A stretch of 41,798 nucleotides of DNA from a virus. This document shows, piece after piece, positions 1-41,798 of the stretch. Location of the stretch: the IMG/VR virus record IMGVR_UViG_3300005323_000021; one strand, given 5' to 3'. The notes beneath the pieces were generated by a model, which saw nothing but the letters and a program-made list of their open reading frames with translations, searched no databases and had not been told where the DNA came from. Position numbers and translations under genes: made by a program. Position 1 is the stretch's first letter. Each line of letters opens with the position of its first letter.

Positions 1-123
1 CTCAGGCAGTTTCTTCCCATTCACCGAAACCTTGATGCACGGATATTTCCGGTGGACCTCTTTGATGCCCTCGCAGAGTTCCGGGAATTTCTCTTTGGCG
101 GCGGGAGTCATCCTGACTTGGAG
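1..123. repeat. Terminal direct repeat, copy 1 (identical to 41676-41798)
   Basis: nt 1-123 (ctcaggcagtttcttccc...catcctgacttggag) recur exactly as the last 123 nt of the window. Unique unit is 41,675 bp. Confidence 0.95.
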
Positions 124-180
124 AGATCCTCGCGTCTCTTTCCGGCAGTCGGTTTTTCCTTCGAGAGTTCGCTGGCTCAT
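1..180 (-). CDS. Small hypothetical protein, 5' part of a gene spanning the genome junction (71 aa when circularised)
   Basis: The ATG at 180 forms ATGA with the stop of the upstream gene. The frame stays open to nt 1 and continues through the repeat, 41675 down to 41640 (MSQRTLEGKTDCRKETRGSLQVRMTPAAKEKFPELCEGIKEVHRKYPCIKVSVNGKKLPEESKSWGKEASS). Confidence 0.5.
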   Translation of the reverse strand, partial: MSQRTLEGKTDCRKETRGSLQVRMTPAAKEKFPELCEGIKEVHRKYPCIKVSVNGKKLPE

Positions 181-875
181 TTGTTCACGCTCCAGCAGAG
201 TTCCCGCCGCAATTCCCGATCGGGCCATCTTCCAGCGAGGCTGTCCTTCATGAAGACCTTGGCACCGGCCCGGTCAGCGGCCCTGCAGATTTTCAGGATG
301 GCTTCAAGTCCGGCGCAGCGATCGGGGCGAGTTTGTGCCCCGATAATCACTTGCTTGATACCGGTGAGATCGATATAATCAGGATCGTCGAGCAGGGGTT
401 CAAAGGAGACAAATAGATTCGGCATATCAGACGCCCTCAGGGACCATAGCCGGTGCATGTCCGACTTTCCGGTGACACTTGTACCGAACCAAAGATTTGA
501 TCTTCTCTGCATGATACCCCCCACGAGAGGATCAACAGAAAGTGGTTGGTACCTATCCGGATTTTTTGTCAGGAAAATATAGGTGTGTTGGAGCCCGATC
601 ACAGTCTCGGTCAGGATTGATTGGATCCAGGAAGTCGGCACCCATTCCCCGAACAGATCCGCCATGCTGCATACGAAAACCGTCGCGGGTTTTTTGTGTT
701 TGACAGCATCACCCATGCGTTCCTGGTGGAACATCGGTTCGAATCCTTGCGGCCATGCCTTCGAGCCCTTGAATCGCTCTGCGATCTTCCGGGCATAGCA
801 GTACGGGCAGCCGTGCTTGCAGCCGGTGACCGGGTTCCAGGTATAATCGCACCACTCGATCGCGGTCTTGTTCAT
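177..875 (-). CDS. DUF5131 / phage Gp37-Gp68 family protein with a C-x3-C-x2-C (radical-SAM-like) motif
   Basis: N-terminus TAIEWCDYTWNPVTGCKHGCPYCYARKIAERF matches the conserved start of this family. The ATG at 875 forms ATGA with the upstream stop (the track ORF extends to 890). Confidence 0.8.
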   Translation of the reverse strand: MNKTAIEWCDYTWNPVTGCKHGCPYCYARKIAERFKGSKAWPQGFEPMFHQERMGDAVKHKKPATVFVCSMADLFGEWVPTSWIQSILTETVIGLQHTYIFLTKNPDRYQPLSVDPLVGGIMQRRSNLWFGTSVTGKSDMHRLWSLRASDMPNLFVSFEPLLDDPDYIDLTGIKQVIIGAQTRPDRCAGLEAILKICRAADRAGAKVFMKDSLAGRWPDRELRRELCWSVNK

Positions 876-1144
876 GCCGCACCATCCCAAACGAGGCTGC
901 CCGTTTTGATGTCGATATATCCCAGATGATGAGAGTACCGGTATCCGGTTATCTCTCCGATCTCTGGTTTTGACAGGTGCATATGCCCCTTTTCGTCTTC
1001 CACTGAGACCATCACGTCTTTTCCATGGCGCTCGGTCACAACATCGACCAGCTTGCAGAACTCATCGACCGGGATGCCCCCGCTCCCCTTGCCGATTGAC
1101 AGGGTTACGATGATTCCGCCGCCCTTTTTCTTCGCTTCAGTCAT
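872..1144 (-). CDS. Hypothetical protein (90 aa)
   Basis: Co-directional ORF, start/stop coupled to its neighbours. Confidence 0.55.
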   Translation of the reverse strand: MTEAKKKGGGIIVTLSIGKGSGGIPVDEFCKLVDVVTERHGKDVMVSVEDEKGHMHLSKPEIGEITGYRYSHHLGYIDIKTGSLVWDGAA

Positions 1145-1304
1145 CCTTCTCCTCCTTCACAAGTTCCTCAATCTGATCACTCACCGTTTTGTTCAGGCGC
1201 TTGAATGCGTCCTGTCTTGTCAGCCGGTTTCCATCCCGGTGCCAGTGCAGGAGATTTTCCAGCGCCTCTTTGAGCTGGCCCTCGTAGTAGCCTTGGGCGC
1301 TCAT
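1137..1304 (-). CDS. Hypothetical helical miniprotein (55 aa)
   Basis: Manual translation gives MSAQGYYEGQLKEALENLLHWHRDGNRLTRQDAFKRLNKTVSDQIEELVKEEKDD. It overlaps the next start by 8 nt (ATGACTGA). Below the ORF-track size cutoff. Confidence 0.4.
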   Translation of the reverse strand: MSAQGYYEGQLKEALENLLHWHRDGNRLTRQDAFKRLNKTVSDQIEELVKEEKDD

Positions 1305-1357
1305 GCCGCCACTTCCTCAAGCGTGATCTGCCCATTCTCGCGTTCCAGTTTTCTCTT

Positions 1358-1558
1358 TCATGGCCGGCTCCGCTTGCCCTTATTCTCGTTCATGTGGATA
1401 AGGATCCCATCCCATGAATCGATCCGCTTTGGGGATATCAGTTTGATCTTCGCGTACCTGCCTTCGTAATCATCGAGCGATTCCTTACCGAACCCCATCA
1501 CTTCCGCCAGGGCCCGGCACTCTTTCAATGTGAGTTTCCTGATTGATTGATCTTTCAT
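1358..1558 (-). CDS. Hypothetical protein (66 aa)
   Basis: ORF in the co-directional array; no recognisable motif. Confidence 0.5.
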   Translation of the reverse strand: MKDQSIRKLTLKECRALAEVMGFGKESLDDYEGRYAKIKLISPKRIDSWDGILIHMNENKGKRSRP

Positions 1559-1572
1559 CGTTCCCTTTCACC

Positions 1573-2172
1573 TTACCTTACTGTTTGTTCCTGCTGTTCC
1601 GGCTTGGTTCTCTTTGGCTGCTCAATCGTCTTGCCAATCTCCGGGGGATCGTTGATCGCTTCGGGTTCTTTCGGCCAGAAGATCGCCACACACGATGAGA
1701 ACGTCGGGGAGTTCTTCACTTGGTTGCCTTCATCATCGTATCCGACAAAACGCACCCGTCCCTTGATGAACCGGATCTCCTGCGCTTTCATAGCGTATGA
1801 GTGCCACCATCGGGTATCAGTGGCGCACGGCACGAGACAGACCACGACGGCTCCCTTCTGCGATTCTTCCAGAGCCTTTGCCATGAACTTGTCGATGTTG
1901 CCCGCTGAATATGGGGGATTGAGAAAAACCCGCTTCCATGTGGGCGTCCATGATAGCGGATCAAATTCCCCCACGAATGCCCCATGATCACAAAGGCAGT
2001 TTTCGCGGGTGCACGCCCCGTCAAAGTCGAAATGAAATTCTGCATCCAGCAGGTCAAACAACCATTGCGGCGTTTCCCAGCTGTCCTTTTCAGTGACGAT
2101 TTTACTTTTGCGTTGATGACTCACGATCGGATCTCCTCCCACATCTCCCCAAGCAGCCCGGCCCGCCACCAT
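1573..2172 (-). CDS. DNA N6-adenine methyltransferase, phage Dam type
   Basis: WETPQWLFDLLDAEFHFDFDGAC ... VFLNPPYS ... GRVRF follows the layout of phage Dam-family (PF05869-like) methyltransferases with an NPPY catalytic motif. The real start is probably GTG 2124 (GTGA overlap with the upstream miniprotein). Confidence 0.85.
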   Translation of the reverse strand: MVAGRAAWGDVGGDPIVSHQRKSKIVTEKDSWETPQWLFDLLDAEFHFDFDGACTRENCLCDHGAFVGEFDPLSWTPTWKRVFLNPPYSAGNIDKFMAKALEESQKGAVVVCLVPCATDTRWWHSYAMKAQEIRFIKGRVRFVGYDDEGNQVKNSPTFSSCVAIFWPKEPEAINDPPEIGKTIEQPKRTKPEQQEQTVR

Positions 2173-2234
2173 ACTATCAGCGTTACGATGACACCCCCAC
2201 CGGCAATGATGAGCGCGTAATCAAGAGGGGTCAT
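2121..2234 (-). CDS. Single-pass membrane miniprotein (37 aa)
   Basis: Manual translation gives MTPLDYALIIAGGGVIVTLIVWWRAGLLGEMWEEIRS. It has ATGA and GTGA overlaps at its two ends. Confidence 0.4.
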   Translation of the reverse strand: MTPLDYALIIAGGGVIVTLIVWWRAGLLGEMWEEIRS

Positions 2235-5508: not shown

Positions 5509-5514
5509 TGAAAA

Positions 5515-6238: not shown

Positions 6239-6240
6239 GG

Positions 6241-6439: not shown

Positions 6440-6642
6440 GTGGATTTTTAATCCATTGATATTCCAACTCTCCGACGTGAATAATATTCGTGGATTTCGA
6501 TCCACACTTTTTTAGATGTGTCCCTTCTTCTTCTTCTTCTTCTTGAAAAAATCTCATCAATCATTATTATTATGTGGATCGGTGATCCACGTTTATTATT
6601 TTCAGACGTGAGAGAAAATAGTTTTATGGATTTTTAATCCAC
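6440..6642. promoter_or_regulatory. Cluster of four GTGGAT-N(3-5)-ATCCAC palindromes in an A/T-rich intergenic region (candidate operator or origin iterons)
   Basis: The four sites are 6440-6456 GTGGATTTTTAATCCAT, 6490-6505 GTGGATTTCGATCCAC, 6574-6590 GTGGATCGGTGATCCAC and 6626-6642 ATGGATTTTTAATCCAC. Sites 2 and 4 are each preceded by GACGTGA. Confidence 0.6.
6524..6544. repeat. (CTT)7 microsatellite (polypyrimidine/polypurine tract)
   Basis: cttcttcttcttcttcttctt, read directly; non-coding, between palindromes 2 and 3. Confidence 0.95.
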
Positions 6643-6735
6643 TGAAATTAAAATAACCTATTTGCTGGTTTTAAAACATAATAATATAATAAATTAATTT
6701 TTGTAAAAAAGAGGGATTTTGAATAAAAAAGTAGG

Positions 6736-9494: not shown

Positions 9495-10097
9495 TCATGC
9501 ACGCTCCATAATTTCATCAGGGTCGTATACTCCGGACACACTGAACGCTTTTCGCAGGCAAACTGATTCCGCCACCTTGATTAGCATCACTGATGGTTTG
9601 GTCTGCCAGAGCCCTTTATATCCGCTTTTCGGGATAGGCTGGACGTACTCATCGAACCGGACCTCGGTCTTGAAGGAGTGCGTCATATCCTTACGCCAGA
9701 TCTCACACCACGCGGTAACGGGGACCTCTTTCCCCTCTTTATCCTTCACGTAGTTAACACCGGAGTTCATCCCGTCGAATTGTCCTGATCTGTGAGCTAT
9801 TGCCAGCATCCCGTCACGCCCTACCATGATCAGGGCGGCGTCGCGTTCGTTGCGCTTGATCGCCCAAATCTGTTTGACCAGGGGGTCCAGACCGTATGTT
9901 TTCGCCATGTACATCATCAGCTTGAACTCGGGCTCAGTACAGTCTTTGGCGATCACATTGCGGAGAAGGATCATTTCATCGTTGGAATACTTCGGTGCTA
10001 GTGCCACGGTATCTGTTGGCACGATTGCCGCCGGGATAATAGCCGGTGCGTCTTCAGGTTCCTGCTTTGGCGGGATCTCAATATAACTCTGGGTCAT
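9495..10097 (-). CDS. recT: RecT/Bet-family single-strand annealing recombinase
   Basis: YGLDPLVKQIWAIKR...IMVGRDGMLAIAHRSGQFDG...WCEIWRKD is the typical RecT/Bet core. Confidence 0.75.
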   Translation of the reverse strand: MTQSYIEIPPKQEPEDAPAIIPAAIVPTDTVALAPKYSNDEMILLRNVIAKDCTEPEFKLMMYMAKTYGLDPLVKQIWAIKRNERDAALIMVGRDGMLAIAHRSGQFDGMNSGVNYVKDKEGKEVPVTAWCEIWRKDMTHSFKTEVRFDEYVQPIPKSGYKGLWQTKPSVMLIKVAESVCLRKAFSVSGVYDPDEIMERA

Positions 10098-11337: not shown

Positions 11338-11575
11338 CATGCAAAACAAAGTGAGGATCTTGGTTGCAGCGGCTCTGATCGTTGCATTGCTCGCTGGTGT
11401 GATTATTGGGGCGGAGTGGCAGAAGGTGCAGCCGGTTGATCTGGCTATCGACTGGTACTCTGAAGCGAACGGATCAGCAAACTTTGACGTGTACACGCTT
11501 ACGGAAAATGGGATGGTGACGATTTACCCGGATCGGAACGTCACTTATTACGGGGTTCTGAAGAATCACCCTTAG
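11338..11575 (+). CDS. Small membrane-anchored or secreted protein (78 aa), the only plus-strand gene
   Basis: MQNKVRILVAAALIVALLAGVIIGAEW... has an N-terminal hydrophobic helix. An A/T box sits upstream. The track ORF starts at TTG 11315. Confidence 0.5.
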
Positions 11576-14401: not shown

Positions 14402-15406
14402 TTAACCTCCTAATGGTACTGCCAGGGCCGGCACTACATACTTTTGAGCGAGCCGGTGGCTGTCGCACCATTTCAGCCAGCCGTGATAACTGCTCACCAC
14501 ATTTCTGTCGTGGCGGGTTGCTGTGCTGAACCTCCTGATCCGGGTAAGTTTCCGTTTCAGATTTTTTGCGGTCGTCTTTCTCAACAGGGTGTAGTGCCCG
14601 AAGCACCGATACCCGACAAAATCAATCCCCCGCACGAATGTTGGGAATACCTGCCAGTTCTCTTTGATTTTTAAGGACAAATTCTCCTGAAGGTATTGCT
14701 CGATCCTCCCGTGCAGCTCGTGCAGGAGGGTTTTGTCGTGGTGCAGGATCACCATATCGTCACAATATCGGTAATAAAAGTCAATGTGCTCGGACTCTTT
14801 GAGCCAGTGATCGAAGTCGTTCAGGTACAGGTTCCCAAAGAACTGTGATAGGTAGTTCCCAATCGGGACCCCATCGGCACTGTCAATCACGTTGTCCAGG
14901 AGTGCGAGCACATCGGGATCCTTGATCTTATGCCGGACCGTTGCCTTCAGGATGTCGTGATTGATCGACGGGTAAAATTTCTTGATGTCGAGTTTCAGGC
15001 AGTATTTTGTTGCCTGCCTGTCTTTCAAGTCACTGCGCAGTGTCCACAATGCCTTATGGATCCCCCGGTTTTTGAGACTTGAATAGGTCCTTGTTATCAA
15101 GGTGTTCATCCAGATCGGTTCAAGGACTTGCACGACCCCCCACTGGATTATCCTGTCGGGATAATAGGGCAAAACAAAGATTTCCCGTTCTTTCGTCCGG
15201 TCGAATTTCTTGAACGTCTTATATTTTGATGTGCGGTATGTTTTGCTTACGAGCAATTCCCTGACATTCCCGAGATATCGTTCCGGATCGGCATCGACCA
15301 TCCGGACTTCGTGGTAATGGGTTTTGCCTTTTCGCGCGTTGGCGTGAGCCCGGGCTATGTTTTTAGGATCGCAAATTTTATCAAAGAGATACCCATACCG
15401 TTTCAT
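14402..15406 (-). CDS. DGR-type reverse transcriptase
   Basis: RT motifs occur in order: LPYYPDRIIQWGVVQVL, LDIKKFYPSINHDIL, GVPIGNYLSQFFGNLYLNDFDH (the DGR-typical IGxxxSQ), YYRYCDDMVIL (YxDD) and GIDFVGY. At 334 aa it has no maturase or endonuclease domains. Confidence 0.9.
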   Translation of the reverse strand: MKRYGYLFDKICDPKNIARAHANARKGKTHYHEVRMVDADPERYLGNVRELLVSKTYRTSKYKTFKKFDRTKEREIFVLPYYPDRIIQWGVVQVLEPIWMNTLITRTYSSLKNRGIHKALWTLRSDLKDRQATKYCLKLDIKKFYPSINHDILKATVRHKIKDPDVLALLDNVIDSADGVPIGNYLSQFFGNLYLNDFDHWLKESEHIDFYYRYCDDMVILHHDKTLLHELHGRIEQYLQENLSLKIKENWQVFPTFVRGIDFVGYRCFGHYTLLRKTTAKNLKRKLTRIRRFSTATRHDRNVVSSYHGWLKWCDSHRLAQKYVVPALAVPLGG

Positions 15407-15543: not shown

Positions 15544-15660
15544 GTTCACTAGGTGAGTGCCAATATTACGATTGACATTCGACGTAGCATTATTCAGATT
15601 CCAATTGAAAGTGCCTGCATTCGCTGCATTATTCCAATTGCCGCCGAGTAGTGCCGCTCC
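15544..15660 (-). repeat. DGR template repeat (TR)
   Basis: This 117-bp non-coding segment aligns without gaps to 15714-15830 (offset 170). The sense strand is adenine-rich and translates as GGNWNNAANAGTFNWNLNNATSNVNRNIG (AAY codons). Confidence 0.85.
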
Positions 15661-18538: not shown

Positions 18539-19110
18539 AATACCTCATACTGAATTGTTACGTCGAACCCGTCAATGGCGGATGCGCCGTTGTTCACGAT
18601 GCTGATCTTTGCCGGGGTCGATACGGTGCCCGATGATTCAACCTCAAAACTGGCCGGGGATGTGGTGATCTCTTCAGCCACATAATCCGCTGCTTCGTAG
18701 CCATACGGATCATCGGCGACCAGTTCTAGCGTAAACTCCGAGCACCCCACCCATGCCCGATCAAATGGCACGCCGCCGGAGTACCGGACAGTATACGTGA
18801 TAGTCGGGGCATCGTCGAATATTAACGCCAGCGCCCGGGGTTTCCCGTTAACGTCCACGAGCGCCCGGGCGAACGCCTTGATCAGCACGTCAAGGGCCGC
18901 CGAATCCGCACAGTCCCGGAAATCGCAGGGGAGCGAGAACCGGCGCTGTCCGACATCAGAGCCAAACCAGTACACCCCATCTCTCCCAGGGATCTCCGCT
19001 GTGCGATCCCGGGTTTCCGGGAGCATGGGAATGCTCGGGCCGTATCGCAATGTGATGCCATACGCAGAAGCAGCGACGCCATCCAAAACAAAGCCACCAT
19101 TATCGACCAT
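18535..19110 (-). CDS. Distal tail protein (Dit, siphovirus tail family)
   Basis: FVLDGVAASAYGITL...RDRTAEIPGRDGVYWFG is a typical Dit N-terminus. Position is immediately after the tape measure gene. Confidence 0.7.
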   Translation of the reverse strand: MVDNGGFVLDGVAASAYGITLRYGPSIPMLPETRDRTAEIPGRDGVYWFGSDVGQRRFSLPCDFRDCADSAALDVLIKAFARALVDVNGKPRALALIFDDAPTITYTVRYSGGVPFDRAWVGCSEFTLELVADDPYGYEAADYVAEEITTSPASFEVESSGTVSTPAKISIVNNGASAIDGFDVTIQYEVL

Positions 19111-25160: not shown

Positions 25161-25185
25161 TTTCTAAACCCTCCCGAAAAAGGGT

Positions 25186-26307
25186 TTAGGATGTTGGCTT
25201 GCTCGCGCCGATATAGCGGTAGTCAAGCCGGGCCGCTGCAATGTCCCATTCACAGCCGTACTCAATGGTCCGGTTGCCGAACGAGAACTGATCCATGCCT
25301 CCGCCGATGATCTCGGTGTCCGGGGTCTTCTTGAGCAGGCGCGGGGTCTGTGCACCAGTGTAGACGCCGAAGGCGACAGCGGGCCGTCCCATGTTCGGAT
25401 CAGCGCACAGATACCACTGCTTGTTGGCGTACGTGTTGCTGGTTGAGATCTGGGTGATCATCTGGTCAACCGCAACCTGGAGACCGGCAAACTGGTTCTT
25501 GCCAGTGATCTTGTACCCAACTTCGCTTGCAAGCTCGTAATATTCCACGGAGATTGCATTTGCGATCTCGTATGCCGTGGGGGCGAGTTCCGGAGGAACA
25601 ATGAGCGTCTTCGGGAGAATCATAACCGAGAGACCGGCTGCATCCTTCTGCGCTGCCATCTTCTTCCAGAGGCTTTTCACTGCATCGTACGAGAGTTCCG
25701 ATGTGATCAGGTTCTTGTACGTGGTGTTCGCGTCGAACATTGATGCGTGCGGGCCACTGGCATCAGCGATAATGCTGGTTGCGAGATACTCGGCACGCAT
25801 TGCGGCCCCCTGAGAGAATCCTTCGGGGATCGAGTTGAAAGCCCCGAGAGCGTCGTTGATGATTGCTTTCCGGGTGAGTTCGATGGTGTCGGAGTAGCTG
25901 TCGATCTGGATTGTATACTGCCCCTCACCAACAGAGGTCTTCGGGCGCCCTTCGTACTCGGAGGTCTTCTGGAGCATCCTGATGGGCCGCTCGAATGCGA
26001 TCAGGGGAACTTCCTTGAAATCATTGCATGTGACGCGCTTGGTCCACATCGGGTATGATACCGGGTACCGTGCATGTGCGTCCAGAAGCTGGGCGTTCAT
26101 ATCCGCGGTGAGCAGATAGGAGAAGTCGGACGTGCCGATCGCTTCTGCCATGCGGTCAAGTGACCGCGGGCCCTCCACGGACCGGATGAGTTCCCAGACT
26201 TTTGCCCGGCGCTGCATACCGGCAGGGGAGTTCAGATACTCTTTGGTCATTGCCTGACCCTTGCCGAAAACTTCGTTAAATTTTGTTTCAGAAATCATGA
26301 TAATCAC
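25186..26307 (-). CDS. Major capsid protein (HK97 fold, Mu gpT-like)
   Basis: 373 aa, immediately after the protease/scaffold and decoration genes. A GGTG Shine-Dalgarno-like sequence lies upstream. Confidence 0.75.
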   Translation of the reverse strand: MIIMISETKFNEVFGKGQAMTKEYLNSPAGMQRRAKVWELIRSVEGPRSLDRMAEAIGTSDFSYLLTADMNAQLLDAHARYPVSYPMWTKRVTCNDFKEVPLIAFERPIRMLQKTSEYEGRPKTSVGEGQYTIQIDSYSDTIELTRKAIINDALGAFNSIPEGFSQGAAMRAEYLATSIIADASGPHASMFDANTTYKNLITSELSYDAVKSLWKKMAAQKDAAGLSVMILPKTLIVPPELAPTAYEIANAISVEYYELASEVGYKITGKNQFAGLQVAVDQMITQISTSNTYANKQWYLCADPNMGRPAVAFGVYTGAQTPRLLKKTPDTEIIGGGMDQFSFGNRTIEYGCEWDIAAARLDYRYIGASKPTS

Positions 26308-27129: not shown

Positions 27130-28275
27130 TTATGCCTCCTTTATACCGGCAAGCCGGTTGGCCTCTTCGCGGGTCTTTCCGTTGGCCTCGTATGAGTCAC
27201 GGAGGTCCTCGCGGGCCTTCTTGACTTCCGCTTCAGTGCCTGCCGCAAACGATCCGCCATTGTCGTGGATACCGGACCGTCCTGACTCTTTCAGGATCGC
27301 GTCGATCTCGGCTTTCTTGTCCTTGATCGCTTCAGTGACGGTGACGCCGAACTTCACGGTATCAATGCTGCCGTCCTCTGCAAGCGGAACCGCCTTTACC
27401 AGCGATTCGGTCAGGGTCTTCGATGCGGTCTCGGTGAGCTTCGCCTTTGCGACTTCGGCCGCTACGAATGTGCGGGCCGCGCCTTCAGCGATCTTGGCCC
27501 GGGCTTCCTTGAGCTGGGTTTCCAGGGTCGTGATGCGGGTAGCTGATTCTTTCATCTTGTTCTTCTGATCTTCGTTCAGTGCGTCGATCTTCAGGGCTTC
27601 GCGCTCCTGTTTTCTGATCTCCGCTACGACTTCGGGATCGCTTGCAAGGATCTCCGTAAGCCTGATTGAGAGCTGTTTGGATTCTGTCATTTTCTTCCTC
27701 TGGTTGTTCGACTGCGATTCCTTGAGCACTTCCGCGATACTGCGAGAATGCCCCCCGGCACCCGGGATAGTGACGAAATCCACGGAATTGAACGGGCTGG
27801 CCCGGAGTTCCGTGATAATCCGCCCCTTCTTGCCGTCCGGGGCAACGCCATCCTCCGCGATGCCGTCAACGTAGTGAGATACGCCGATCTTGCCGGAGAG
27901 CCATTTGAGATCTTCGCGGCGATGCGGGCGGATGTCGGCGGTAGAATAGATCCCCGGGCCGTCCCATCCATCCGTCTCATAGTGGCCGGCTTCTGCAAGC
28001 ACGGCGGCAAGGGTTTCAGTGGACCTGGCCGGGTTATCGGCTTCCTGCTTACGGGTCGGGTGGTCCATGTGCATGAGCATACCTTTTGGGTATACCCCGG
28101 CTTCACAGGCTTTCCGGAGTTTTGCCTCACCGTAATAGCCGCTCGACCCCCAACCGGGCTGAATGATGTGGAGCTCGATCGTTCCGGGTTTCGCTGCGGC
28201 GCCCTCTGATTCGCGGAACCGCATAACGTCGCCGGAGATGAGCGTCGGTTGATCAGGGATGGTTTGCACCCCCAA
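27130..28275 (-). CDS. Prohead protease / scaffold fusion (Mu gpI-like)
   Basis: An N-terminal globular domain (HIIQPGWGSSGYYG...MHMDHP) is followed by a ~180-aa K/E/A-rich coiled coil. The start is uncertain (TTG/GTG at 28275-28267, or ATG at MRFRESEG). Confidence 0.6.
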   Translation of the reverse strand: MGVQTIPDQPTLISGDVMRFRESEGAAAKPGTIELHIIQPGWGSSGYYGEAKLRKACEAGVYPKGMLMHMDHPTRKQEADNPARSTETLAAVLAEAGHYETDGWDGPGIYSTADIRPHRREDLKWLSGKIGVSHYVDGIAEDGVAPDGKKGRIITELRASPFNSVDFVTIPGAGGHSRSIAEVLKESQSNNQRKKMTESKQLSIRLTEILASDPEVVAEIRKQEREALKIDALNEDQKNKMKESATRITTLETQLKEARAKIAEGAARTFVAAEVAKAKLTETASKTLTESLVKAVPLAEDGSIDTVKFGVTVTEAIKDKKAEIDAILKESGRSGIHDNGGSFAAGTEAEVKKAREDLRDSYEANGKTREEANRLAGIKEA

Positions 28276-28376: not shown

Positions 28377-29225
28377 TTACTGACGTTCTGATGCAGCTTG
28401 GTACACCATATAGCATCGGCATCCCGGATCAGTGGGCGGTTCGGTATCCCCGGATGAAAAGGTATGCCCCATCTCAACCCACCCCTCGGCCTCATTCGCG
28501 GCATGTTCCGGCCTGACCTTGTCATCATGTGAGGTCATCCAGTGCTCTTCCATCGTTACGCCGTCATCTTCTAGCGACTTGGCAAACGCATTGTTCCCCG
28601 CTTCATACGCCTGCCCGCTTTCAAACACCGCGATCCTTTGCGCCCGGTCCCGACTGATCGGACCGTCGAATAGTTTTTTGATCTCCTTCGCTGATTGACC
28701 GTACGACCATCCTTCATCAATCGCCGTGGTCATCAGGCGCTTGATACTTTCTCCGGTCGTTGCCTGGATCCCGCTGATGTACTGGGTGCTGCCCCCGGTC
28801 TTCTGAAACCATGCGACGGCTCGGGGATTGGCAAGATTCCACATATCGCTCGTGGGGGAAACACCGCCCGGCTGGAGTTGCTTTGCCAGCTGTTGCCCGC
28901 CTTTTAGCACGCCCTCCGATTCCACGTTAGTAATGACCTTCTGGAGATCATCGTACGTGAGTTGATCGATATCGTTCCACATCCGGGTGATGTCATGCGT
29001 GGTCAGAAACTCGTTGGGGGTGAGTGCTTCGCAGAGGGTCCGGTACTCCTCGGTAAAAAGGAAATCGTAGCCTTTGAATTTCTCCAGTGTGATATCCCGT
29101 TGCTTCCGGAAAAAGGCGGCGATTTTGGGCCGGTGCTTCGCGGCGATGCGGTCAATTTCCCGGCGCTTAAGCAGGCCGATGGCCGCCCGGTTCATCTTAT
29201 CGGCGGCTTCTTGTAATGGAGTCAT
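28377..29225 (-). CDS. Head morphogenesis protein (Mu F / SPP1 gp7 family)
   Basis: HDDKVRPEHAANEAEGWV...DPGCRCY is the characteristic C-terminal motif. The gene directly follows the portal gene. Confidence 0.75.
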   Translation of the reverse strand: MTPLQEAADKMNRAAIGLLKRREIDRIAAKHRPKIAAFFRKQRDITLEKFKGYDFLFTEEYRTLCEALTPNEFLTTHDITRMWNDIDQLTYDDLQKVITNVESEGVLKGGQQLAKQLQPGGVSPTSDMWNLANPRAVAWFQKTGGSTQYISGIQATTGESIKRLMTTAIDEGWSYGQSAKEIKKLFDGPISRDRAQRIAVFESGQAYEAGNNAFAKSLEDDGVTMEEHWMTSHDDKVRPEHAANEAEGWVEMGHTFSSGDTEPPTDPGCRCYMVYQAASERQ

Positions 29226-31139: not shown

Positions 31140-32588
31140 TTATACGGCGTAATCATCGGCGATGTGATACACCGTTTTGCGTTCCCCTACCCTACCTACT
31201 GACAGATACCATAAGGCCATGCTGGTGCAATCCACATCATCGTCGTGTACCGAATCATCGGGGAATGCAACCATGGTCTCAATGTAATCATTCATCCAGT
31301 GCGCCCCGGCGGGGAACTGGCATAAATGTGCCTGGAATATCGGGGTGATGGATTCCGCCCGGGCTCGTTTATCTGCAAGAGGGAGCGGGTTTATTGGCAA
31401 CACGGGGATCCGGTGCGGTGATTGCCGTAACGACTGGATCAGGCTTTGCCCGCTGGCTTTGTCCTCTACCAGCACGACGTTGGGCCTGTGCTGCAAGTAT
31501 TGCCCTTCAGCAGCTTGCACCAATGCGGGGTACTCGACGCGGCCTTTCCACCGGTCCATCTTGAAGTACCCTTGATTATTCATCCCCCACGTCTGGCATA
31601 CTGAGAAGTCCGGGTCTGTAGTGCCCCCGGTCTTTTTCTTGACTGGGACTTTGAAAGCAGTATCCCATACCTGGATTTTCAGGGGCCATAGGTATTCTGC
31701 GAACAGCGAGGGATCGTATAACCGGGTGAACCATTCGCGCCTAAATACGTCGCCTGCTGTTGGCCGGACTTTCCAGTTTCCATGCAGGAGCCGCATCATT
31801 TCGACGTATGGTAACGCCATGAGGTTTGCCCGGTACTGCGGATCTTTCGATGTGAGCGCCGGGTTATCGGTCAGTTTCGCGGGGATAAACGTAAGGGACC
31901 GTGGCGGGATATCGGGATATTCCTCTGCGAGTTCTTCCGGGCTATCAGCCCACCGTAAGACGTTGTTCACCCGGACGAACCACCGGACCAGCCCGGCCCG
32001 TTCTTGGATTGGGAACCCGGTCGCCTGATCGATCCACCACGCGATGAGTTTAGTTACCCATCCCCCCACCGGATCGTCATCAGGGACCGGGTTACACGTT
32101 GCCCTGACGTATGGCCTTACCCCGCACACGGACCGGTTACGGGATAAAAGATACCAGAACTGGAACTCAGTAAAATGAGTGAGTTCGTCGAACTCTATGA
32201 GCGGGATTTGAGCCCCCTGATAATCATAGACATGCCGCTCATATTCAAGGTGTGCCATTTTCACGCTGTTGCCGTACGGAGGGAACACCCATTTGAGATC
32301 GGACCGGTTCGACGATGCCCCAATCAGCGGGTATATCTTCGCGGCCTCTTCCCATAATCCCCCCTGGCTGGTGATCTGCGGAGTTGTGCGGCGGAAAATA
32401 GTAGCACCGAAGCCCGGGACTGTCGGGATATAATGCAGCGGCTCAAGCAGTTCCCCGTACGTCTTCCCGGACCCGGCAGCGCCCCCATAAATAGCGATAT
32501 CGGCGGGTGTGGATAGAAACGCTTCCTGAGGCCCTGCCTGCGGGCGAATGTCGATTTGTTGTGGTTGCGGTGCGGTTGCCGCCATCAT
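31140..32588 (-). CDS. terL: Terminase large subunit
   Basis: Walker A IYGGAAGSGKTYG near the N-terminus. 482 aa. Overlaps the TerS stop. Confidence 0.85.
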   Translation of the reverse strand: MMAATAPQPQQIDIRPQAGPQEAFLSTPADIAIYGGAAGSGKTYGELLEPLHYIPTVPGFGATIFRRTTPQITSQGGLWEEAAKIYPLIGASSNRSDLKWVFPPYGNSVKMAHLEYERHVYDYQGAQIPLIEFDELTHFTEFQFWYLLSRNRSVCGVRPYVRATCNPVPDDDPVGGWVTKLIAWWIDQATGFPIQERAGLVRWFVRVNNVLRWADSPEELAEEYPDIPPRSLTFIPAKLTDNPALTSKDPQYRANLMALPYVEMMRLLHGNWKVRPTAGDVFRREWFTRLYDPSLFAEYLWPLKIQVWDTAFKVPVKKKTGGTTDPDFSVCQTWGMNNQGYFKMDRWKGRVEYPALVQAAEGQYLQHRPNVVLVEDKASGQSLIQSLRQSPHRIPVLPINPLPLADKRARAESITPIFQAHLCQFPAGAHWMNDYIETMVAFPDDSVHDDDVDCTSMALWYLSVGRVGERKTVYHIADDYAV

Positions 32589-33067
32589 TTCCCGGCCTTC
32601 CTGCCATTATCGGGCACGTATACCACGACCGTGGACCCGGCACCGGGTGCATTCCCACCTTTCTGTGGATCCTTGAATGACCCCAGGACCCGGCCTTTCA
32701 GTTCGATCTGCTTTTCCCTCCGGGCCAGACCGAGCAGCGCGATCTTCGGGTCATAATCAGGATTCGGGATCTCAATTCCGTTCGCGTCCCGGATCGTCTT
32801 CTTGATAGCGTTGCTGATGATGTACCGGGCGATCTTCTCGGATTCGTGGACTTCACCAAGCAGATCATCAGCATCGGCAATTTCCTGTGCTTTGGCAGCC
32901 TGCTTGATTTTAGCGATCACATGACCGTTTTTGACATGCCGCGATAGGGCATCATCTGATACGCGGAACTGCCGCGCGATTCCGCGAATGCTGGCACCAT
33001 CAGCGACGAGCGCTTTGTCTATCTCGTGCCGCGCTTTGTGCTGGCAAATGGTGCACTTTGGGGCCAT
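32585..33067 (-). CDS. terS: Terminase small subunit (zinc-ribbon plus HTH N-terminus)
   Basis: CTICQHKARHEIDKALVADGASIRGIARQFRVSDDALSRH. Immediately upstream of and overlapping TerL. Confidence 0.65.
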   Translation of the reverse strand: MAPKCTICQHKARHEIDKALVADGASIRGIARQFRVSDDALSRHVKNGHVIAKIKQAAKAQEIADADDLLGEVHESEKIARYIISNAIKKTIRDANGIEIPNPDYDPKIALLGLARREKQIELKGRVLGSFKDPQKGGNAPGAGSTVVVYVPDNGRKAGK

Positions 33068-34921: not shown

Positions 34922-36310
34922 TTAATCGCCCTCCAAAAGAACCGGCATCTTGTTAAAGGTGGTCTTATAGCGTTCAAGACAAACTGCCACGTACCCGGGG
35001 TCCACTTCCACGCCCCGGCACTTCCTCCCTAAATTCTCGCATGCGATCATGGTGGTACCGGATCCGAGGAATGGCTCATAAATTGGTGATTCTTTATTTG
35101 AGAATGCGGTTATAAACCACGCTGCCAACTTTACAGGAAACACCGCGGGGTGATCTATACTTTCTGAATTGGGGGAGATCTCGATCACATTTCCCGGTCT
35201 GGCAATCCCTTTCTTTGTTTTTCCACCCACGGTTATATTCCCGCTTTTTCCTTGTGACGGGTTTGTCGGAGAATATTCTCGTATATTCTCCGACACTGTT
35301 CCAACATCCAGAGGGTTAAATATAATCTCCTTGTTTTTTGAGAACTGAAAACACGGTTCAAAGTCATTTCTAAACCGGTTATTCCATCCTCCCGGTATGC
35401 CTTTGTGATACCAGATCAGATCGTCAATATATCTGAATCCAATCTCCTCTTTTAGTGCGATTACAAGTTTTTTCACATAGAGGATTCTTTCACCATCATC
35501 ACAATTCTCTTTTATATTGAGAATGAAACTGCCTTTATCAGAGAGAATATTTTTTATATTTTCTGCAACGCCTGAGAACCATTTAACATACTTCTCTGGG
35601 GCAATGCTGGCATATTGTCCTTTTCTCTGTTCTGCATAAGGTGGGCTTGTAAAGCATAGATCCGCCTTCTCACCCTGCATCACCCGCTCAACAACCGCCG
35701 GATCCGTGCAATCCCCGCAGATCACCCGGTGATCGCCGCATTGCCACATCTGCCCCAGCTCGGTGCCCCACTCTTTCCGCAGTTCCTCCGATCTTGATAT
35801 CTGCGGTTCGGCGTCTAATGGCTCATCGTCCTTGTGGAGATCCCTGAGCATCCCGTCAAACTCAATATCATCAAACCCGGTGAACTCCAGCATATCATCG
35901 AGTTTCAATTCCTGCAAGTTGATCGTGAGTTGCCCGATATCCCAATCACCCTGTGCTTTGTTCAGGGCAATATTGGCAGCGTTCTCCTCTTTCTCAGACA
36001 GTTCCTTGAGATCCGCTTCTGCAAAGGCCCACGTATACGCCCCGAGCGCCACGGTGTACAGTTCAGTGTATCCCTGCGAATCCAGGACTTTAATTCTCTG
36101 GTGGCCACCCAGGATCTTCCGGGTGCGGGTATTGAAGATGATCGGGTCCAGTTGCCCGAACTTCTCCACGCTCTTATTGATCTTCTCAAACTCCGGATCG
36201 CCTTTCTTGAGATCCTTACGCGGATTCTTTGCATCCGGTATCAGGTGCGCCAACAGGATTTTACCGAGCCCTGCCGGGATTGGTTGCTCTTTAAGTGGAT
36301 TTTGTTTCAT
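34922..36310 (-). CDS. ParB-like nuclease domain fused to a beta-class DNA methyltransferase (N4-C or N6-A)
   Basis: ParB-like N-terminus (NPRKDL...FGQLDPIIFN...ILGGHQR). Motif IV FTSPPY precedes motif I EPFLGSGTT, the beta-class order. Confidence 0.8.
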   Translation of the reverse strand: MKQNPLKEQPIPAGLGKILLAHLIPDAKNPRKDLKKGDPEFEKINKSVEKFGQLDPIIFNTRTRKILGGHQRIKVLDSQGYTELYTVALGAYTWAFAEADLKELSEKEENAANIALNKAQGDWDIGQLTINLQELKLDDMLEFTGFDDIEFDGMLRDLHKDDEPLDAEPQISRSEELRKEWGTELGQMWQCGDHRVICGDCTDPAVVERVMQGEKADLCFTSPPYAEQRKGQYASIAPEKYVKWFSGVAENIKNILSDKGSFILNIKENCDDGERILYVKKLVIALKEEIGFRYIDDLIWYHKGIPGGWNNRFRNDFEPCFQFSKNKEIIFNPLDVGTVSENIREYSPTNPSQGKSGNITVGGKTKKGIARPGNVIEISPNSESIDHPAVFPVKLAAWFITAFSNKESPIYEPFLGSGTTMIACENLGRKCRGVEVDPGYVAVCLERYKTTFNKMPVLLEGD

Positions 36311-38220: not shown

Positions 38221-38225
38221 ACGGG

Positions 38226-38738: not shown

Positions 38739-38750
38739 TATTATTACTCC

Positions 38751-39230: not shown

Positions 39231-39301
39231 GTATACAACTTCCTTTTCCCGGTGATGGTGCCGGGAGCACCTTGACAATGATAATACGGAGAGGGTATTT
39301 A

Positions 39302-39631
39302 TTAAGGTTTCTCTTTTATCTCCTCTTTTGAACACCTCTTCCGTTCCTCTTGCGGGATATCATAATCGAGATTGATACTATCCTCATTGTCATATCCGAT
39401 CCACTCTGCAACGAATCCCTTAGACTTCAGCAAAGTGATTACTTCTTCCCATGATTGGGGATACCGCATTTGGACGTATTTTTCAGATGCGGGATCCGGG
39501 TAAGGAATGTACGTAGAGAGCGCCTTTTTTACTGCATCTTTATCCGCATCGGTTTTTATTATCCCATTCCAGCACCTGTACGAATATTCCCCTTCTTCAA
39601 TGAAGAAATAAGTCAATGGTTTTTCAGTCAT
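39302..39631 (-). CDS. Hypothetical protein (109 aa)
   Basis: Co-directional ORF in the A/T-rich stretch next to the HNH-AP2 gene. Confidence 0.55.
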   Translation of the reverse strand: MTEKPLTYFFIEEGEYSYRCWNGIIKTDADKDAVKKALSTYIPYPDPASEKYVQMRYPQSWEEVITLLKSKGFVAEWIGYDNEDSINLDYDIPQEERKRCSKEEIKEKP

Positions 39632-39869
39632 TGTTTTTCACTCCATATCCTTTTACCATCCGTGCCTTTGCCGCCGTGTTGTGCTCCAGTGCCAGGTCCC
39701 GGTTCGCCGTGGTGTATTGCCCCTTTGCATACAGCGTCCGGCACGGGGTACTGCAACACTGATCCTGGTTCTTCCTGGAGAATCGTTTCCGCGCTTGTGC
39801 TCCAATCTCTGAGAATCGCTTACCGCAGACCGTGCACATGAGCCAGATTCGCGGCTTGTGAAAACTCAA
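39624..39869 (-). CDS. Zinc-ribbon protein (81 aa from TTG; shorter from the internal ATG)
   Basis: WLMCTVCGKRFSE...CCSTPCRTLYAKG. The pattern is shared with the 3392..3589 product. Confidence 0.5.
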   Translation of the reverse strand: MSFHKPRIWLMCTVCGKRFSEIGAQARKRFSRKNQDQCCSTPCRTLYAKGQYTTANRDLALEHNTAAKARMVKGYGVKNND

Positions 39870-40003
39870 TCGCTCGCCTCGATCTGAACAATACGGGATT
39901 TTGGAGGATTAATGTACATACCATCGCCACCCAGAGGGAAGATCGCTCCGCGTTTCAGCAAGTACAGCATTCTTCTTACGGTGGTTTTTGTGCGTTTTTT
40001 CAC
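39866..40003 (-). CDS. Possible basic miniprotein (45 aa)
   Basis: MKKRTKTTVRRMLYLLKRGAIFPLGGDGMYINPPKSRIVQIEASD, from a GTG start in a GTGA overlap. Confidence 0.35.
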   Translation of the reverse strand: MKKRTKTTVRRMLYLLKRGAIFPLGGDGMYINPPKSRIVQIEASD

Positions 40004-40191: not shown

Positions 40192-40193
40192 GA

Positions 40194-40604
40194 TTACCTC
40201 GCTCCCTGGTTCGGTTTGTCCGGCATCCATTTCCCGCTCCATTCGCCTTTTCTCACGACTTCCCCGATCGCGTAGTCCAGCCTGCGGTACGCTTCTGTGA
40301 GACTGAACCAGATCTCTTTCTCGAATGGCGTCAGGCTCCCCCAGTCCGGTGGTGCGATGTCGGTTGCGTTGAGCTCGGCGGCCCGTGCGAGCTTGTCCCT
40401 GCGGAGCCGGAAGATGTCTTCCAACAGTTCCCTTGCGGTGAAGTAGTCGCAGTCCTCACCGAGTTGCAGGGGGTCGGGGCCGGCATCCTTGAGGAGCTGG
40501 TCGAGCAGGGCCCTGATGTCCTTCTGGTCCGGAGGTACGATTATACGGTAGTGGTCCTTTTCCTGCCGGCGCCATTCGGTGAGGTCGGAGAGGGTGAGGG
40601 TCAT
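40194..40604 (-). CDS. Hypothetical helical protein; weak resemblance to the GINS (Gins51/Sld5-type) A-domain
   Basis: PLQLGEDCDYFTARELLEDIFRLRRDKLARAA...LTPFEKEIWFSLTEAYRRL parallels the archaeal GINS pattern (L-L--DFY ... LR--KI---A ... LT-EE). Confidence 0.3.
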   Translation of the reverse strand: MTLTLSDLTEWRRQEKDHYRIIVPPDQKDIRALLDQLLKDAGPDPLQLGEDCDYFTARELLEDIFRLRRDKLARAAELNATDIAPPDWGSLTPFEKEIWFSLTEAYRRLDYAIGEVVRKGEWSGKWMPDKPNQGAR

Positions 40605-40735
40605 CTTGACCTCTGATAACCGCTGATGTTATCCATCGTCTTTTCAAAGTCCTTGGTGGCTTCAAACGCATGACAATACCCCCTTGAGAGCGCACAGGGC
40701 CTCCGTTTTCGATACCAACAGCGATTTTCTTTCAT
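40601..40735 (-). CDS. Cys-containing miniprotein (44 aa)
   Basis: MKENRCWYRKRRPCALSRGYCHAFEATKDFEKTMDNISGYQRSR. ATGA overlaps at both ends. Confidence 0.4.
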   Translation of the reverse strand: MKENRCWYRKRRPCALSRGYCHAFEATKDFEKTMDNISGYQRSR

Positions 40736-40899
40736 TGCATCATCCACTCCACACTTCGATTGATCTCGTTGATGGCATACAAGCAGCGCTGGTTTTCCAC
40801 GCAATCCGGAGGGGGAGCATGATTTCCCCTTCCATCCTTTACGATCACCTCACACGTTCTGCCTCTGCCCTTGCACCCCCCACATACATATTTCGTCAC
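40732..40899 (-). CDS. Zinc-ribbon miniprotein (55 aa)
   Basis: (M)TKYVCGGCKGRGRTCEVIV...PPPDCVENQRC. GTG start in a GTGA overlap. Confidence 0.45.
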   Translation of the reverse strand: MTKYVCGGCKGRGRTCEVIVKDGRGNHAPPPDCVENQRCLYAINEINRSVEWMMQ

Positions 40900-41237
40900 A
40901 GTCCCACCGCCTTGATGTTTTCCAGCCACCAGATGAACCCGGCAAATGCCTTGTCCATCGACTCATCGGATCCATCGAGATTTTCACAGAAGGGGCTGGC
41001 CCAGAATGCGTAATAAACATCCAGAGAGTACCGTCCTGTGAGAACACAGTTCTGAGGGGCATCGTCAAACGGAAGGCCGGGAAGATCGTCCTCGTTACAA
41101 TCAAATGATAGGCACCACGGGTCTGCCGAGAGAAGATTTCCATAATCCCCGTACTCTTCGTTTGAACTGTAGGAGTGGCAGGAATAGCACGATGGTTTGT
41201 GCGGGGACCATCCTTGAATACGCTCGATGTCGCTCAT
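40896..41237 (-). CDS. Hypothetical acidic Cys-rich protein (113 aa)
   Basis: Co-directional, ATGA-coupled ORF. Confidence 0.55.
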   Translation of the reverse strand: MSDIERIQGWSPHKPSCYSCHSYSSNEEYGDYGNLLSADPWCLSFDCNEDDLPGLPFDDAPQNCVLTGRYSLDVYYAFWASPFCENLDGSDESMDKAFAGFIWWLENIKAVGL

Positions 41238-41437
41238 CTCATCCTCCCTGCCTTGCTGAATCTCGGCACCGCTGCGATGCTCATCTGGATCTGCTCGGGG
41301 CTGTGCCTGTCTCCTGCGCAGTGATAATAGGTCTGGCCGCCGATCACGGTGGCTGCACCTTTGCGGATGGCTTCTTCCCGCGTGATGTGAGGGAGCGGGG
41401 CGGAGCAGACCACGCAGAGGATGGGTTCGGTTTTCAT
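41234..41437 (-). CDS. Cys-rich protein, paralog family C (copy 2)
   Basis: MKTEPILCVVCSAPLP...TYYHCAGDRHSPEQIQMSIAAVPRF. ATGA overlaps at both ends. Confidence 0.6.
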   Translation of the reverse strand: MKTEPILCVVCSAPLPHITREEAIRKGAATVIGGQTYYHCAGDRHSPEQIQMSIAAVPRFSKAGRMR

Positions 41438-41643
41438 GGCCGGCCCTCGATTGGCACCAGCTGAATCTTCACTGCATACCATCCCTGCCGGCGCAGGTCT
41501 GCCCAGGTCTTACCGACGAATTGCTTCACGAATTTTTCAATGGCGTCCTTCCGGTTGATTTCGCACATCGATGGGATGATGTAGTCTCGCATGTTCTGGC
41601 GCCAGCGTTTTCGAGCGATTGACCAGACAATTTGAGGTTTCAC
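41434..41643 (-). CDS. Hypothetical protein (69 aa)
   Basis: GTG 41643 forms GTGA with the stop of the junction-spanning gene. Confidence 0.5.
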   Translation of the reverse strand: MKPQIVWSIARKRWRQNMRDYIIPSMCEINRKDAIEKFVKQFVGKTWADLRRQGWYAVKIQLVPIEGRP

Positions 41644-41798
41644 GAGCTCGCCTCCTTGCCCCACGACTTCGATTCCTCAGGCAGTTTCTTCCCATTCACC
41701 GAAACCTTGATGCACGGATATTTCCGGTGGACCTCTTTGATGCCCTCGCAGAGTTCCGGGAATTTCTCTTTGGCGGCGGGAGTCATCCTGACTTGGAG
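41640..41798 (-). CDS. 3' part of the junction-spanning small gene (same gene as 1..180)
   Basis: The frame is open from the window end to TGA at 41640-41642. An internal ATG at 41786 would give 48 aa. The full 71-aa form needs the circular junction. Confidence 0.5.
   Translation of the reverse strand, partial: LQVRMTPAAKEKFPELCEGIKEVHRKYPCIKVSVNGKKLPEESKSWGKEASS
41676..41798. repeat. Terminal direct repeat, copy 2 (identical to 1-123)
   Basis: Exact 123-nt match to the window start, read by eye base for base. Confidence 0.95.

Follow-up and report, generated by a model that had tools for sequence, protein, structure and literature searches.

A complete tailed-virus genome with a Gins51-like gene, very probably from a virus of Methanomicrobiales

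The IMG/VR record IMGVR_UViG_3300005323_000021, a stretch of 41,798 nucleotides (hereafter the window, always at its full length), is the genome of a siphovirus of the class Caudoviricetes, and its host is very probably a methanogenic archaeon of the order Methanomicrobiales rather than a bacterium. The virus is a new, distant relative, within the archaeal tailed viruses, of Methanoculleus virus Blf4, the sole isolate for this order. The initial annotation had left the host domain ambiguous while leaning toward a methanogen-like archaeon. Six independent lines of evidence support this leaning and largely resolve the ambiguity: the synteny of the head genes with Blf4, a closely related capsid in a Methanospirillum metagenome-assembled genome (MAG), another related capsid in a 489-kb metagenome contig, related proviruses in genomes that carry mcrA, a GINS-like gene, and TATA boxes together with oligo-T runs. 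The leading host candidates are Methanospirillum and Methanoregulaceae.

The viral genome in the window is complete (circularly permuted or terminally redundant) because its first and last 123 bases are identical, positions 1..123 recurring as a direct terminal repeat at 41676-41798. Simple tiling of open reading frames (ORFs) places about 78 of them on the minus strand, where they cover 93% of the 41.8-kb genome and leave an intergenic share of roughly 7%; there are no tRNA genes in the window. The Pfam scan covered all 40 ORFs of at least 100 amino acids in the tiled gene set, with a few overlapping alternatives (e.g., 23830-24210) left out, and the PHROGs scan covered 20 unassigned proteins. 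The Pfam matches include the gene set of a tailed virus, namely an HK97-type capsid protein, a large terminase, a portal and a tail module. The head genes, all on the minus strand, are as follows, with identities to the corresponding Blf4 proteins.

32585..33067, minus strand: small-terminase-like (TerS-like) DNA-binding protein, 49% identical to the Blf4 protein
31140..32588, minus strand: large terminase (TerL), PF03237/PF17289, 44% identical to Blf4 TerL over 449 amino acids
29222..30793, minus strand: portal, weak PF05133 match, 25% identical to Blf4
28377..29225, minus strand: MuF-like minor head protein, PF04233, 35% identical to Blf4
27130..28269, minus strand: scaffold or head-maturation-protease-like protein, phrog_15531 (E 1.9e-17), 34% identical to Blf4; GTG at 28269 is the likely true start, judging from relatives
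25186..26307, minus strand: HK97-type major capsid protein, PF25209 (E 4.9e-24), 30% identical to Blf4

All six proteins found their counterparts in a tblastn comparison of the window proteins with the Blf4 genome (NC_074642), and the gene order is the same. The best match of the capsid protein in the phage database is Blf4/L4768 (E 7e-35, with 30% identity across 90% of the capsid sequence); the best matches from bacterial phages reach E ~1e-14 (Streptomyces phages) and 8e-13 (Stenotrophomonas S1). The portal, too, has Blf4 among its leading matches in the phage database, beside an unassigned saliva caudovirus and actinophages. Blf4 lyses Methanoculleus bourgensis, a host that was shown experimentally (PMC8540584), and before Blf4 no virus had been described for Methanomicrobiales, according to the 2021 paper (Weidenbach et al. 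2021, PMC8540584). Beyond the syntenic TerS-TerL-portal-MuF-scaffold-capsid block, the two viruses share a siphovirus-type genome in the 37-42 kb range with nearly all genes on one strand (the window has a single credible plus-strand ORF), the lack of a recognised endolysin and, on the reading given here, a Methanomicrobiales host. They differ in that the identities are low, at family level or beyond, the tail modules do not match, and the G+C content is 63% in Blf4 and 52% in the window; furthermore, Blf4 has a primase/helicase but no diversity-generating retroelement (DGR), GINS-like gene or RecT.

Closer relatives of the capsid protein are almost all unnamed metagenome proteins: a collection of 5.8 billion proteins yielded 35 homologues at 43-87% identity. 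The sole named one, from 'Methanospirillum sp.' (MDD1729820/WP_300040118), belongs to the 90% cluster of a protein that is 77% identical to that of the window. A pattern scan that took one genome per species, 185,579 species in all, returned a single locus, the 13,969-bp contig NZ_JAJRBM010000362 (L002/L095) of the Methanospirillum sp. MAG OWC_0038, where the portal is 58%, the scaffold 62%, the g29 product 80% and the capsid 76% identical to the window proteins. In a maximum-likelihood capsid tree, the window belongs to an 18-row clade with 100/99 support. The only attributable members of this 18-member clade are the Methanospirillum MAG contig (76-77%) and the 489-kb contig (Ga0326728_10000042), which carries, at about 270 kb, a locus (L009) with a capsid of 51% identity. 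One gene in the upstream flank of L009 encodes a product that matches proteins of Methanoregula sp. (77% identity) and of a Methanoregulaceae archaeon (63%), while bacterial and other archaeal homologues of this gene reach 54% at most. Judged from these sequences, the capsid lineage of the window appears only in methanogen-associated sequences, and the close homologues are not bacterial.

At L009 (260213-281325 of this Methanoregula-like contig), the scaffold and capsid genes with their conserved promoter are preceded by cellular-type genes, not by terminase and portal genes; these encode a kinase with zf-AN1, TPR, PEGA/beta-propeller, 2'-5' RNA ligase family, NUDIX and CAP proteins. Possible origins of the locus are decay or rearrangement of a provirus and capture of a capsid module.

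A capsid profile matches 9 of 401 genomes of the MAG's order, and three of these (G001, G263 and G297) are among the 25 genomes of its genus. When the DNA around the capsid matches was fetched and compared with all window proteins, five contigs proved to contain syntenic proviruses, more distant from the window than its capsid-clade members and lodged in methanogen chromosomes, with the following content.

G233:C1, 3.17 Mb: g2, GINS-like gene, g17, portal, g41-like gene, scaffold, capsid and g35 at 408-427 kb, in window order except for the g41-like gene
G186:C5, 144 kb: portal, MuF, scaffold, g29, capsid, g34, tape measure, DGR target, reverse transcriptase (RT; 50%), the ORF after the RT (31%) and RecT (50%)
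G297:C24, 31 kb: head genes, DGR target and RT (48%)
G142:C68, 470 kb: TerS, TerL, portal, MuF, scaffold, capsid, g35 and tape measure
G362:C21, 55 kb: g2, g17, methyltransferase, portal, scaffold, capsid, g35, g55, g59 and DUF5131

G186:C5, G142:C68, G297:C24 and G362:C21 each have 8-12 genes in common with the window. All five provirus genomes tested carry mcrA, and in G233 this gene lies on the provirus contig itself, at 552 kb. Mis-binning cannot explain the provirus cases. Three further contigs, of 125 kb (P0008), 949 kb (P0019) and 564 kb (P0055), carry close homologues of the capsid and GINS-like proteins.

The nearest relatives by sequence are uncultivated and comprise IMG/VR and metagenome sequences, for example, IMGVR_UViG_3300002220_000453 (42.9 kb, L030) and the OWC_0038 contig, with capsids 76-87%, portals 58-70% and TerL 70% identical to those of the window and with the same late promoter layout. 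These relatives are unannotated and undescribed, and were compared in the parts that were fetched. In the fetched stretches of L030 and L028, the closest relatives by head genes, the tail/DGR module of the window was not seen; this module instead matches L035, L041 and L053.

The GINS complex is a part of archaeal and eukaryotic replisomes only and is absent from bacteria (PMC3914693 and the Makarova 2012 paper cited therein), which gives weight to a small early gene near the end of the window that the initial annotation had flagged as possibly GINS-like.

40194..40604, minus strand: stand-alone GINS A-domain protein (Gins51-like, no B domain), 136 amino acids

Fold comparison and homology to cellular Gins51 confirm and strengthen this suggestion. 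On its own, the protein matches PF05916 (Sld5) with E 0.011 and 16.4 bits, below the curated cut-off of 22.3; the cellular Gins51 proteins of two genomes of the order score 18.8 and 24.1 bits, that is, near the same cut-off. Its 12 homologues, at 39-68% identity, include one named 'GINS family' by the Joint Genome Institute (JGI). An AlphaFold2 (AF2) model built from the homologue alignment has a mean predicted local distance difference test score (pLDDT) of 85.4, and when it was compared with 48,161 PDB chains, ranks 1-12 were all GINS proteins (Z 10.9-6.6), followed by the first unrelated chain at Z 5.8. The best match is the Saccharolobus solfataricus protein (Z 10.9, root-mean-square deviation 2.8 Å over 105 residues); the helical A-domain fold is likewise shared with Gins51 of Thermococcus kodakarensis (3anw_A, Z 10.3) and Methanocaldococcus jannaschii (7yil, Z 8.0). 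The top 30-odd rows listed by Foldseek are all GINS or CMG/replisome entries, with weak E-values (4.6e-3 at best).

A profile of the viral protein finds two close viral copies, in G233:C1 and G327:C117, and one weaker match per genome (E 1e-8 to 5e-4) in 48 of the 401 Methanomicrobiales genomes. The two of these 48 that were examined are cellular Gins51 proteins (Gins51_C plus Sld5) encoded directly next to priS, the gene for the primase small subunit, and the remaining 46 are presumably cellular Gins51 as well. For the homology to cellular GINS, hhalign gives 79% probability and E 1.6e-5. The viral protein differs from the cellular Gins51 of Euryarchaeota in its length of 136 amino acids, its score below the Sld5 cut-off and the lack of the C-terminal B domain: it stops after the helical domain, and in the model residues 120-136 are without regular secondary structure, the last five having pLDDT below 50. 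The protein is a Gins51 A-domain without the B domain, a truncated homologue of a host replisome subunit. GINS is part of the Cdc45-MCM-GINS (CMG) helicase of archaea and eukaryotes, which is distinct from the bacterial machinery (PMC3914693). The GINS-like gene is a host marker that is independent of the structural genes.

Archaeal promoters have one TATA box, located about 25 nt upstream of the transcription start, and archaeal transcription terminates at oligo-T runs. The initial annotation had pointed to three A/T boxes ahead of operon-first genes, all of which are present; each precedes, by 22-28 nt, a start codon without a Shine-Dalgarno sequence. The third box, ATATAAAT at 11306-11313, reads on the plus strand, ahead of the plus-strand ORF described below; the element TTTATATT at 11312-11305 was considered as a minus-strand promoter of a leaderless gene and rejected, only a 5-codon ORF following it, and the box fits the plus-strand ORF instead. 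The other two boxes and that of the late operon are listed here.

34223-34216, minus strand: TTTATATA box, 22 nt before the ATG at 34193; candidate archaeal TATA box of a leaderless first gene
6420-6413, minus strand: TTAAATAG box, 28 nt before the ATG at 6384, no Shine-Dalgarno sequence
28338-28331, minus strand: CTTATATA TATA box of the late (scaffold/capsid) operon, preceded by a GGTATAC palindrome at 28356-28350 and followed after 24 nt by a conserved AATGGCA

Of the leaderless cases that had been proposed for several operon-first genes, only two or three are clean; the box near 9247 is indeed followed by GGAGGG, as had been cautioned. Shine-Dalgarno use is uninformative as to domain: 49 of 71 genes carry, upstream, at least 4 nt that match GGAGGTGATC. 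The late promoter has one layout throughout at least 12 relatives, whose capsid identities run from 46% to about 87% and scaffold identities up to 97%: the palindrome GGTATACC, about 8 nt, ACTTTnnn-TTATATA, 23-25 nt and AATGGCA, in flanks that vary. Sigma-70-like sites are no more numerous than in shuffled sequence (25 vs 19.8±4.9 and 17 vs 16.4±4.2).

Copies of the GGTATAC(C) palindrome occur, besides that at 28350-28356, at minus-strand positions 32624, 30053, 28096, 8860 and 7002; in most relatives, about 8 nt separate the palindrome from the late TATA element downstream of it. The palindrome is a candidate binding site of a viral regulator. Between the late TATA box and the scaffold gene, a conserved ORF of 16-17 codons (MATTKPYCTVFGGANHP, then a stop) begins at the ATG at 28306, the putative transcript start, runs in the +1 frame relative to the scaffold gene and ends about 18 nt past the likely GTG start of the latter (28269). 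The surrounding stretch (28255-28395, minus strand) contains an ATGGC...GCCAT hairpin and is conserved in L003, L026, L028, L030, L031, L032, L095 and other loci. Translation of scaffold/capsid could be coupled to the short ORF as a leaderless upstream ORF; alternatively, the stretch could be a structured 5' leader.

Runs of at least five T on the sense strand are rare, with 18 such runs against 84 A-runs. Eight of the 18 follow stop codons within 1-38 nt (g19, g22, MuF, capsid, DGR target and g59); these lie in intergenic DNA, and none coincides with a hairpin-plus-T terminator. Examples are the following.

25177..25181, minus strand: T5 run within the loop of a conserved hairpin, 5 nt beyond the capsid stop codon
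34252-34256, 28366-28370, 15702-15707 and 6705-6710: T5-6 runs without hairpins

No canonical intrinsic terminator was found at any operon end in a terminator scan of positions 1-40000. Hairpin-plus-T sites number 29 vs 19.5±3.5 in 1-20000, about 2.7 standard deviations above expectation, and 16 vs 22.9±5.4 in 20001-40000, below expectation; they lie mostly on the non-coding strand. Taken together, the TATA boxes and the oligo-T runs resemble the pattern expected of archaeal promoters and termination. The host archaeal RNA polymerase would transcribe the genome from single A/T-rich TATA boxes and would stop at oligo-T runs without hairpins; some first genes would be leaderless, and internal genes would use GGAGG or GGTGA.

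The hairpin at the capsid end (25160-25186, minus strand) is also found in L004, L005 and L027 (TAATCCC...GGGATTA, with a T5-7 run in the loop), and its 3' arm contains the GGAGG Shine-Dalgarno sequence of the next small gene. It may be an attenuator that sets the ratio of capsid to downstream expression.

The absence of lysis genes, claimed at the outset, is borne out: neither a lysozyme, amidase or peptidase-type endolysin nor a holin was detected in the Pfam scan of the 40 ORFs of at least 100 amino acids or in the PHROGs scan of the 20 unassigned proteins, although a novel lysin is possible. Thus neither an endolysin detected by profile nor exclusively bacterial close homologues, both of which the initial annotation had named as refuting an archaeal host, turned up. 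The match of the protein at 11735-14092 to PF06605 ('Prophage endopeptidase tail') presumably reflects a structural Tal domain. An endolysin and a holin are near-universal in tailed phages of bacteria. The envelopes of Methanomicrobiales are protein S-layers or sheaths, not murein or pseudomurein; because they are proteinaceous, a muralytic enzyme would not be needed, and the virus could leave such a host without one. The same two scans also agree with the earlier claim that genes for an integrase, a polymerase, a primase and a helicase are all missing. The lack of an integrase among the matches makes a virulent or non-integrating lifestyle, like that of Blf4, probable, although relatives of the virus occur as proviruses.

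The only plus-strand gene deemed credible lies next to this question.

11339..11575, plus strand: ORF of 78 amino acids with an N-terminal transmembrane helix; ATATAAAT at 11306-11313, 25 nt upstream, no Shine-Dalgarno sequence

This ORF is divergent from the AbrB-type gene and sits just past the tail genes, where the lysis genes of a phage would sit; it has no homologue in any fetched relative locus. The membrane-anchored product could have a role in superinfection exclusion or egress.

Several observations weigh against a methanogen host. The N-terminal half of TerL is equally close to Rhizobium phages (58.6%) and to Blf4 (58.5%), the Pfam families of the tail proteins are common with bacteriophages, from which these families were built, and the sigma-70-like site about which the initial annotation had warned is real: TTGACA-18-TATACT at 34243-34214, a good site with 11 of 12 positions matching, overlaps the TTTATATA box. 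In the capsid tree, the clade of the window joins a bacterial protease-capsid fusion clade (87/93), not the Blf4/provirus clades, on short internal branches and with long-branch warnings, and the tree does not resolve the deep branching among the window clade, the Blf4/provirus clades and two bacterial clades; because it left the deep archaeal/bacterial split unsettled, we relied on clade membership, synteny and pairwise scores. The OWC_0038 contig (14 kb) is wholly viral, so its assignment to Methanospirillum rests on binning. The G+C content of the window (52%) differs from the 45-49% of the Methanospirillum loci and the 63% of Blf4; most other Methanomicrobiales loci are at 54-59%, and one is at 48%. 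Finally, no clustered regularly interspaced short palindromic repeat (CRISPR) spacer, as a 100% match, was found for the window DNA in 25 genomes of the genus and 101 of the family, a weak test in that MAGs rarely assemble arrays and few candidates were scored. These DNA searches returned gene-level similarity only (DUF5131, RT and template repeat), and a 24/25 match in G371 was rejected as a spacer, lying outside any repeat array.

Much of this is what would be seen if the host were a bacterium living alongside methanogens in anoxic habitats (e.g., a member of syntrophic Bacillota or Chloroflexota) and the archaeal-looking relatives came about via mis-binning and module exchange: the TerL ATPase half at 58-60% identity to Rhizobium phage terminases, the bacteriophage-derived tail families, the sigma-70-like site, the weakly supported proximity of the capsid to the bacterial fusion clade, and the absence of spacer evidence. 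Such a host is nonetheless highly improbable, given that relatives reside within long methanogen contigs, including the one shared with mcrA, which is not mis-binning, that the GINS-like gene lacks a bacterial counterpart and matches Gins51 of the hosts themselves, that the lysis genes near-universal in tailed phages of bacteria were not found, that sigma-70 sites and intrinsic terminators are not enriched, and that every attributable member of the capsid clade is from Methanomicrobiales. An archaeon outside this order, for example, one of Methanosarcinales/Methanotrichales or a non-methanogen, is a quite unlikely host. It would agree with the closeness of the DGR-targeted tail protein to a protein of Methanosarcina virus MetMV and with a G+C content unlike that of the sampled Methanospirillum loci, and no spacer pins the host; on the other side, the head module has its closest cultured relative in a virus of Methanoculleus, and all attributable capsid-clade members and all syntenic proviruses were found within the order of the Methanospirillum MAG, with the reservation that the profiles were run on that order only, which leaves this alternative under-tested rather than refuted. 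A Methanomicrobiales host thus remains the reading that we very much prefer.

TerL was rejected as a domain-diagnostic marker, Rhizobium phages scoring equal to Blf4 over its ATPase half. This half (residues ~10-293) is 58-60% identical to the proteins of Blf4 and of the Rhizobium phages RHph_TM3_3_3 and RHph_N28_2, and the nuclease half is much more divergent, which suggests a TerL ATPase clade common to archaeal viruses and bacteriophages.

The tail region encodes a DGR, with the following components.

15548..15656, minus strand: template repeat (TR), 72% identical to the variable repeat
15718-15826: variable repeat (VR), within the C-terminus of a 636-amino-acid tail protein
14402..15406, minus strand: DGR reverse transcriptase, PF00078
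15708..17618, minus strand: the 636-amino-acid tail protein, DGR target, phrog_5302 (E 6.7e-77)

The two repeats are 109 nt long, 25 of their 30 mismatches fall at TR adenines, and the RT lies 141 nt downstream of the TR. The best phage-database match of the target is a protein of MetMV (30% identity over 81%, E 3e-37); bacterial phages reach E 7e-18 at best. The repeat comparison indicates that the DGR rewrites the C-terminus of a tail protein related to that of MetMV. An ORF of 101 amino acids after the RT (14095-14400), considered as an Avd-type accessory protein, has no Pfam or PHROG match and a 31% identical homologue after the RT in provirus G186:C5. A DGR in an archaeal virus is reportedly also found in ANMV-1 of ANME-1 (Paul et al. 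2015, cited in PMC9723712 and PMC8934634), which likewise diversifies a tail or adhesion protein; that virus and its host lineage are different, and the two are likened here by description.

DGR RTs that are 47-50% identical to that of the window adjoin homologues of the 636-amino-acid target in G297 (C24:3212-6021) and G186 (C5:103866-107050), and a template-like stretch with 88% identity over 32 nt occurs in G263 (C29:3907-4596); G263 and G297 belong to the genus of the Methanospirillum MAG. Because of these homologues and the template-like stretch, related DGRs can be traced in several genomes of the order.

The remaining annotated features fall into the flanking and tail parts of the genome, again on the minus strand. 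The early region encodes a methyltransferase, a NUMOD3 nuclease, DUF3560 and HTH_17 proteins and is followed by the head region (large terminase, portal, MuF and the HK97-type capsid PF25209), the tail region (tail completion, tape measure, Dit, Gp80-like, reverse transcriptase and Tal-like PF06605 proteins) and the late region (AbrB/MazE-type, RecT, RNA ligase, Dam methylase and DUF5131), all by Pfam. The nucleic-acid enzymes matched in the scans are RecT, an RNA ligase, HNH and NUMOD3 nucleases and two methyltransferases.

34922..36310, minus strand: N6/N4 DNA methyltransferase, PF01555 (E 5.6e-34)
33182-33355, minus strand: HTH_17 protein (Pfam)
19110..21557, minus strand: tape measure protein, PF10145
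11735..14092, minus strand: Tal-like tail tip or fibre protein, PF06605 and PF09327
11069..11248, minus strand: AbrB/MazE-type DNA-binding protein, PF04014 (E 3.7e-7)
9495..10097, minus strand: RecT recombinase, PF03837 (E 2.7e-32)
6561..6735: candidate origin or operator, intergenic, 24% G+C, with GTGGAT..ATCCAC palindromes and two T6 runs after the upstream stop codon
177-890, minus strand: DUF5131 (radical-SAM-like) gene

Among the small proteins, the picture drawn initially held in part. The AbrB-type regulator is present, at 11069-11248, and no ribbon-helix-helix (RHH) protein was confirmed among the small proteins scanned; of the more than a dozen CxxC zinc-ribbon miniproteins proposed, 16 proteins of at most 113 amino acids do have 4-6 cysteines, but only six have two CX2-4C knuckles under a strict pattern. 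A protein of 150 amino acids encoded after the tail genes resembles viral hypotheticals only. The DUF5131 gene shows 74-92% nucleotide similarity over 40-100 nt to loci in most of 21 matching genomes (101 searched), and its product is 50% identical to that of a gene in provirus G362:C21.

Because the virus has no replicase of its own, it would depend on the host MCM-GINS machinery and on RecT. Lacking its own polymerase, primase and helicase, it would be replicated by the host machinery, which the GINS-like protein might recruit or modulate, with RecT recombination helping, and the palindrome-rich region of 24% G+C at 6561-6735 would be the candidate viral origin. A 286-amino-acid protein at 8097-8957 was considered as a replication protein and rejected, its Atlas matches being DNA binders of the Bro-N/KilA-N/antirepressor type. 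As a speculative and rather doubtful extension, the lineage might have dropped helicase, primase and polymerase, with the Gins51 A-domain inserting into, or competing with, the host MCM-GINS (CMG) and redirecting the helicase to the viral origin, coupled with DGR diversification of the receptor-binding tail protein. The searchable literature describes no such replisome takeover for archaeal tailed viruses; nor did it yield reports of Methanospirillum viruses, of Methanoregulaceae viruses with DGRs, of DGRs in any Methanomicrobiales virus or of GINS encoded by viruses, but the main methanogen-virus compendium is outside its reach, so we make no claim of priority.

In wetlands, landfills and digesters, Methanomicrobiales produce methane on a major scale, and a complete genome assignable to this order serves as a reference when hosts are predicted for methane-cycle viromes. 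What supports the assignment to the order is a set of gene-level markers: the clade of the capsid, the conserved promoter of the late operon and the GINS-like gene. The genome adds to a thinly sampled virus group a member with tail-fibre hypermutation and a copy of an archaeal replication-fork protein; DGR diversification of tail proteins occurs in this lineage, and three other genomes of the order have homologues of the RT and the target. The lead that promises most is the GINS-like gene, and the virus-borne GINS A-domain offers a testable handle on the use of the host CMG helicase by small archaeal viruses.

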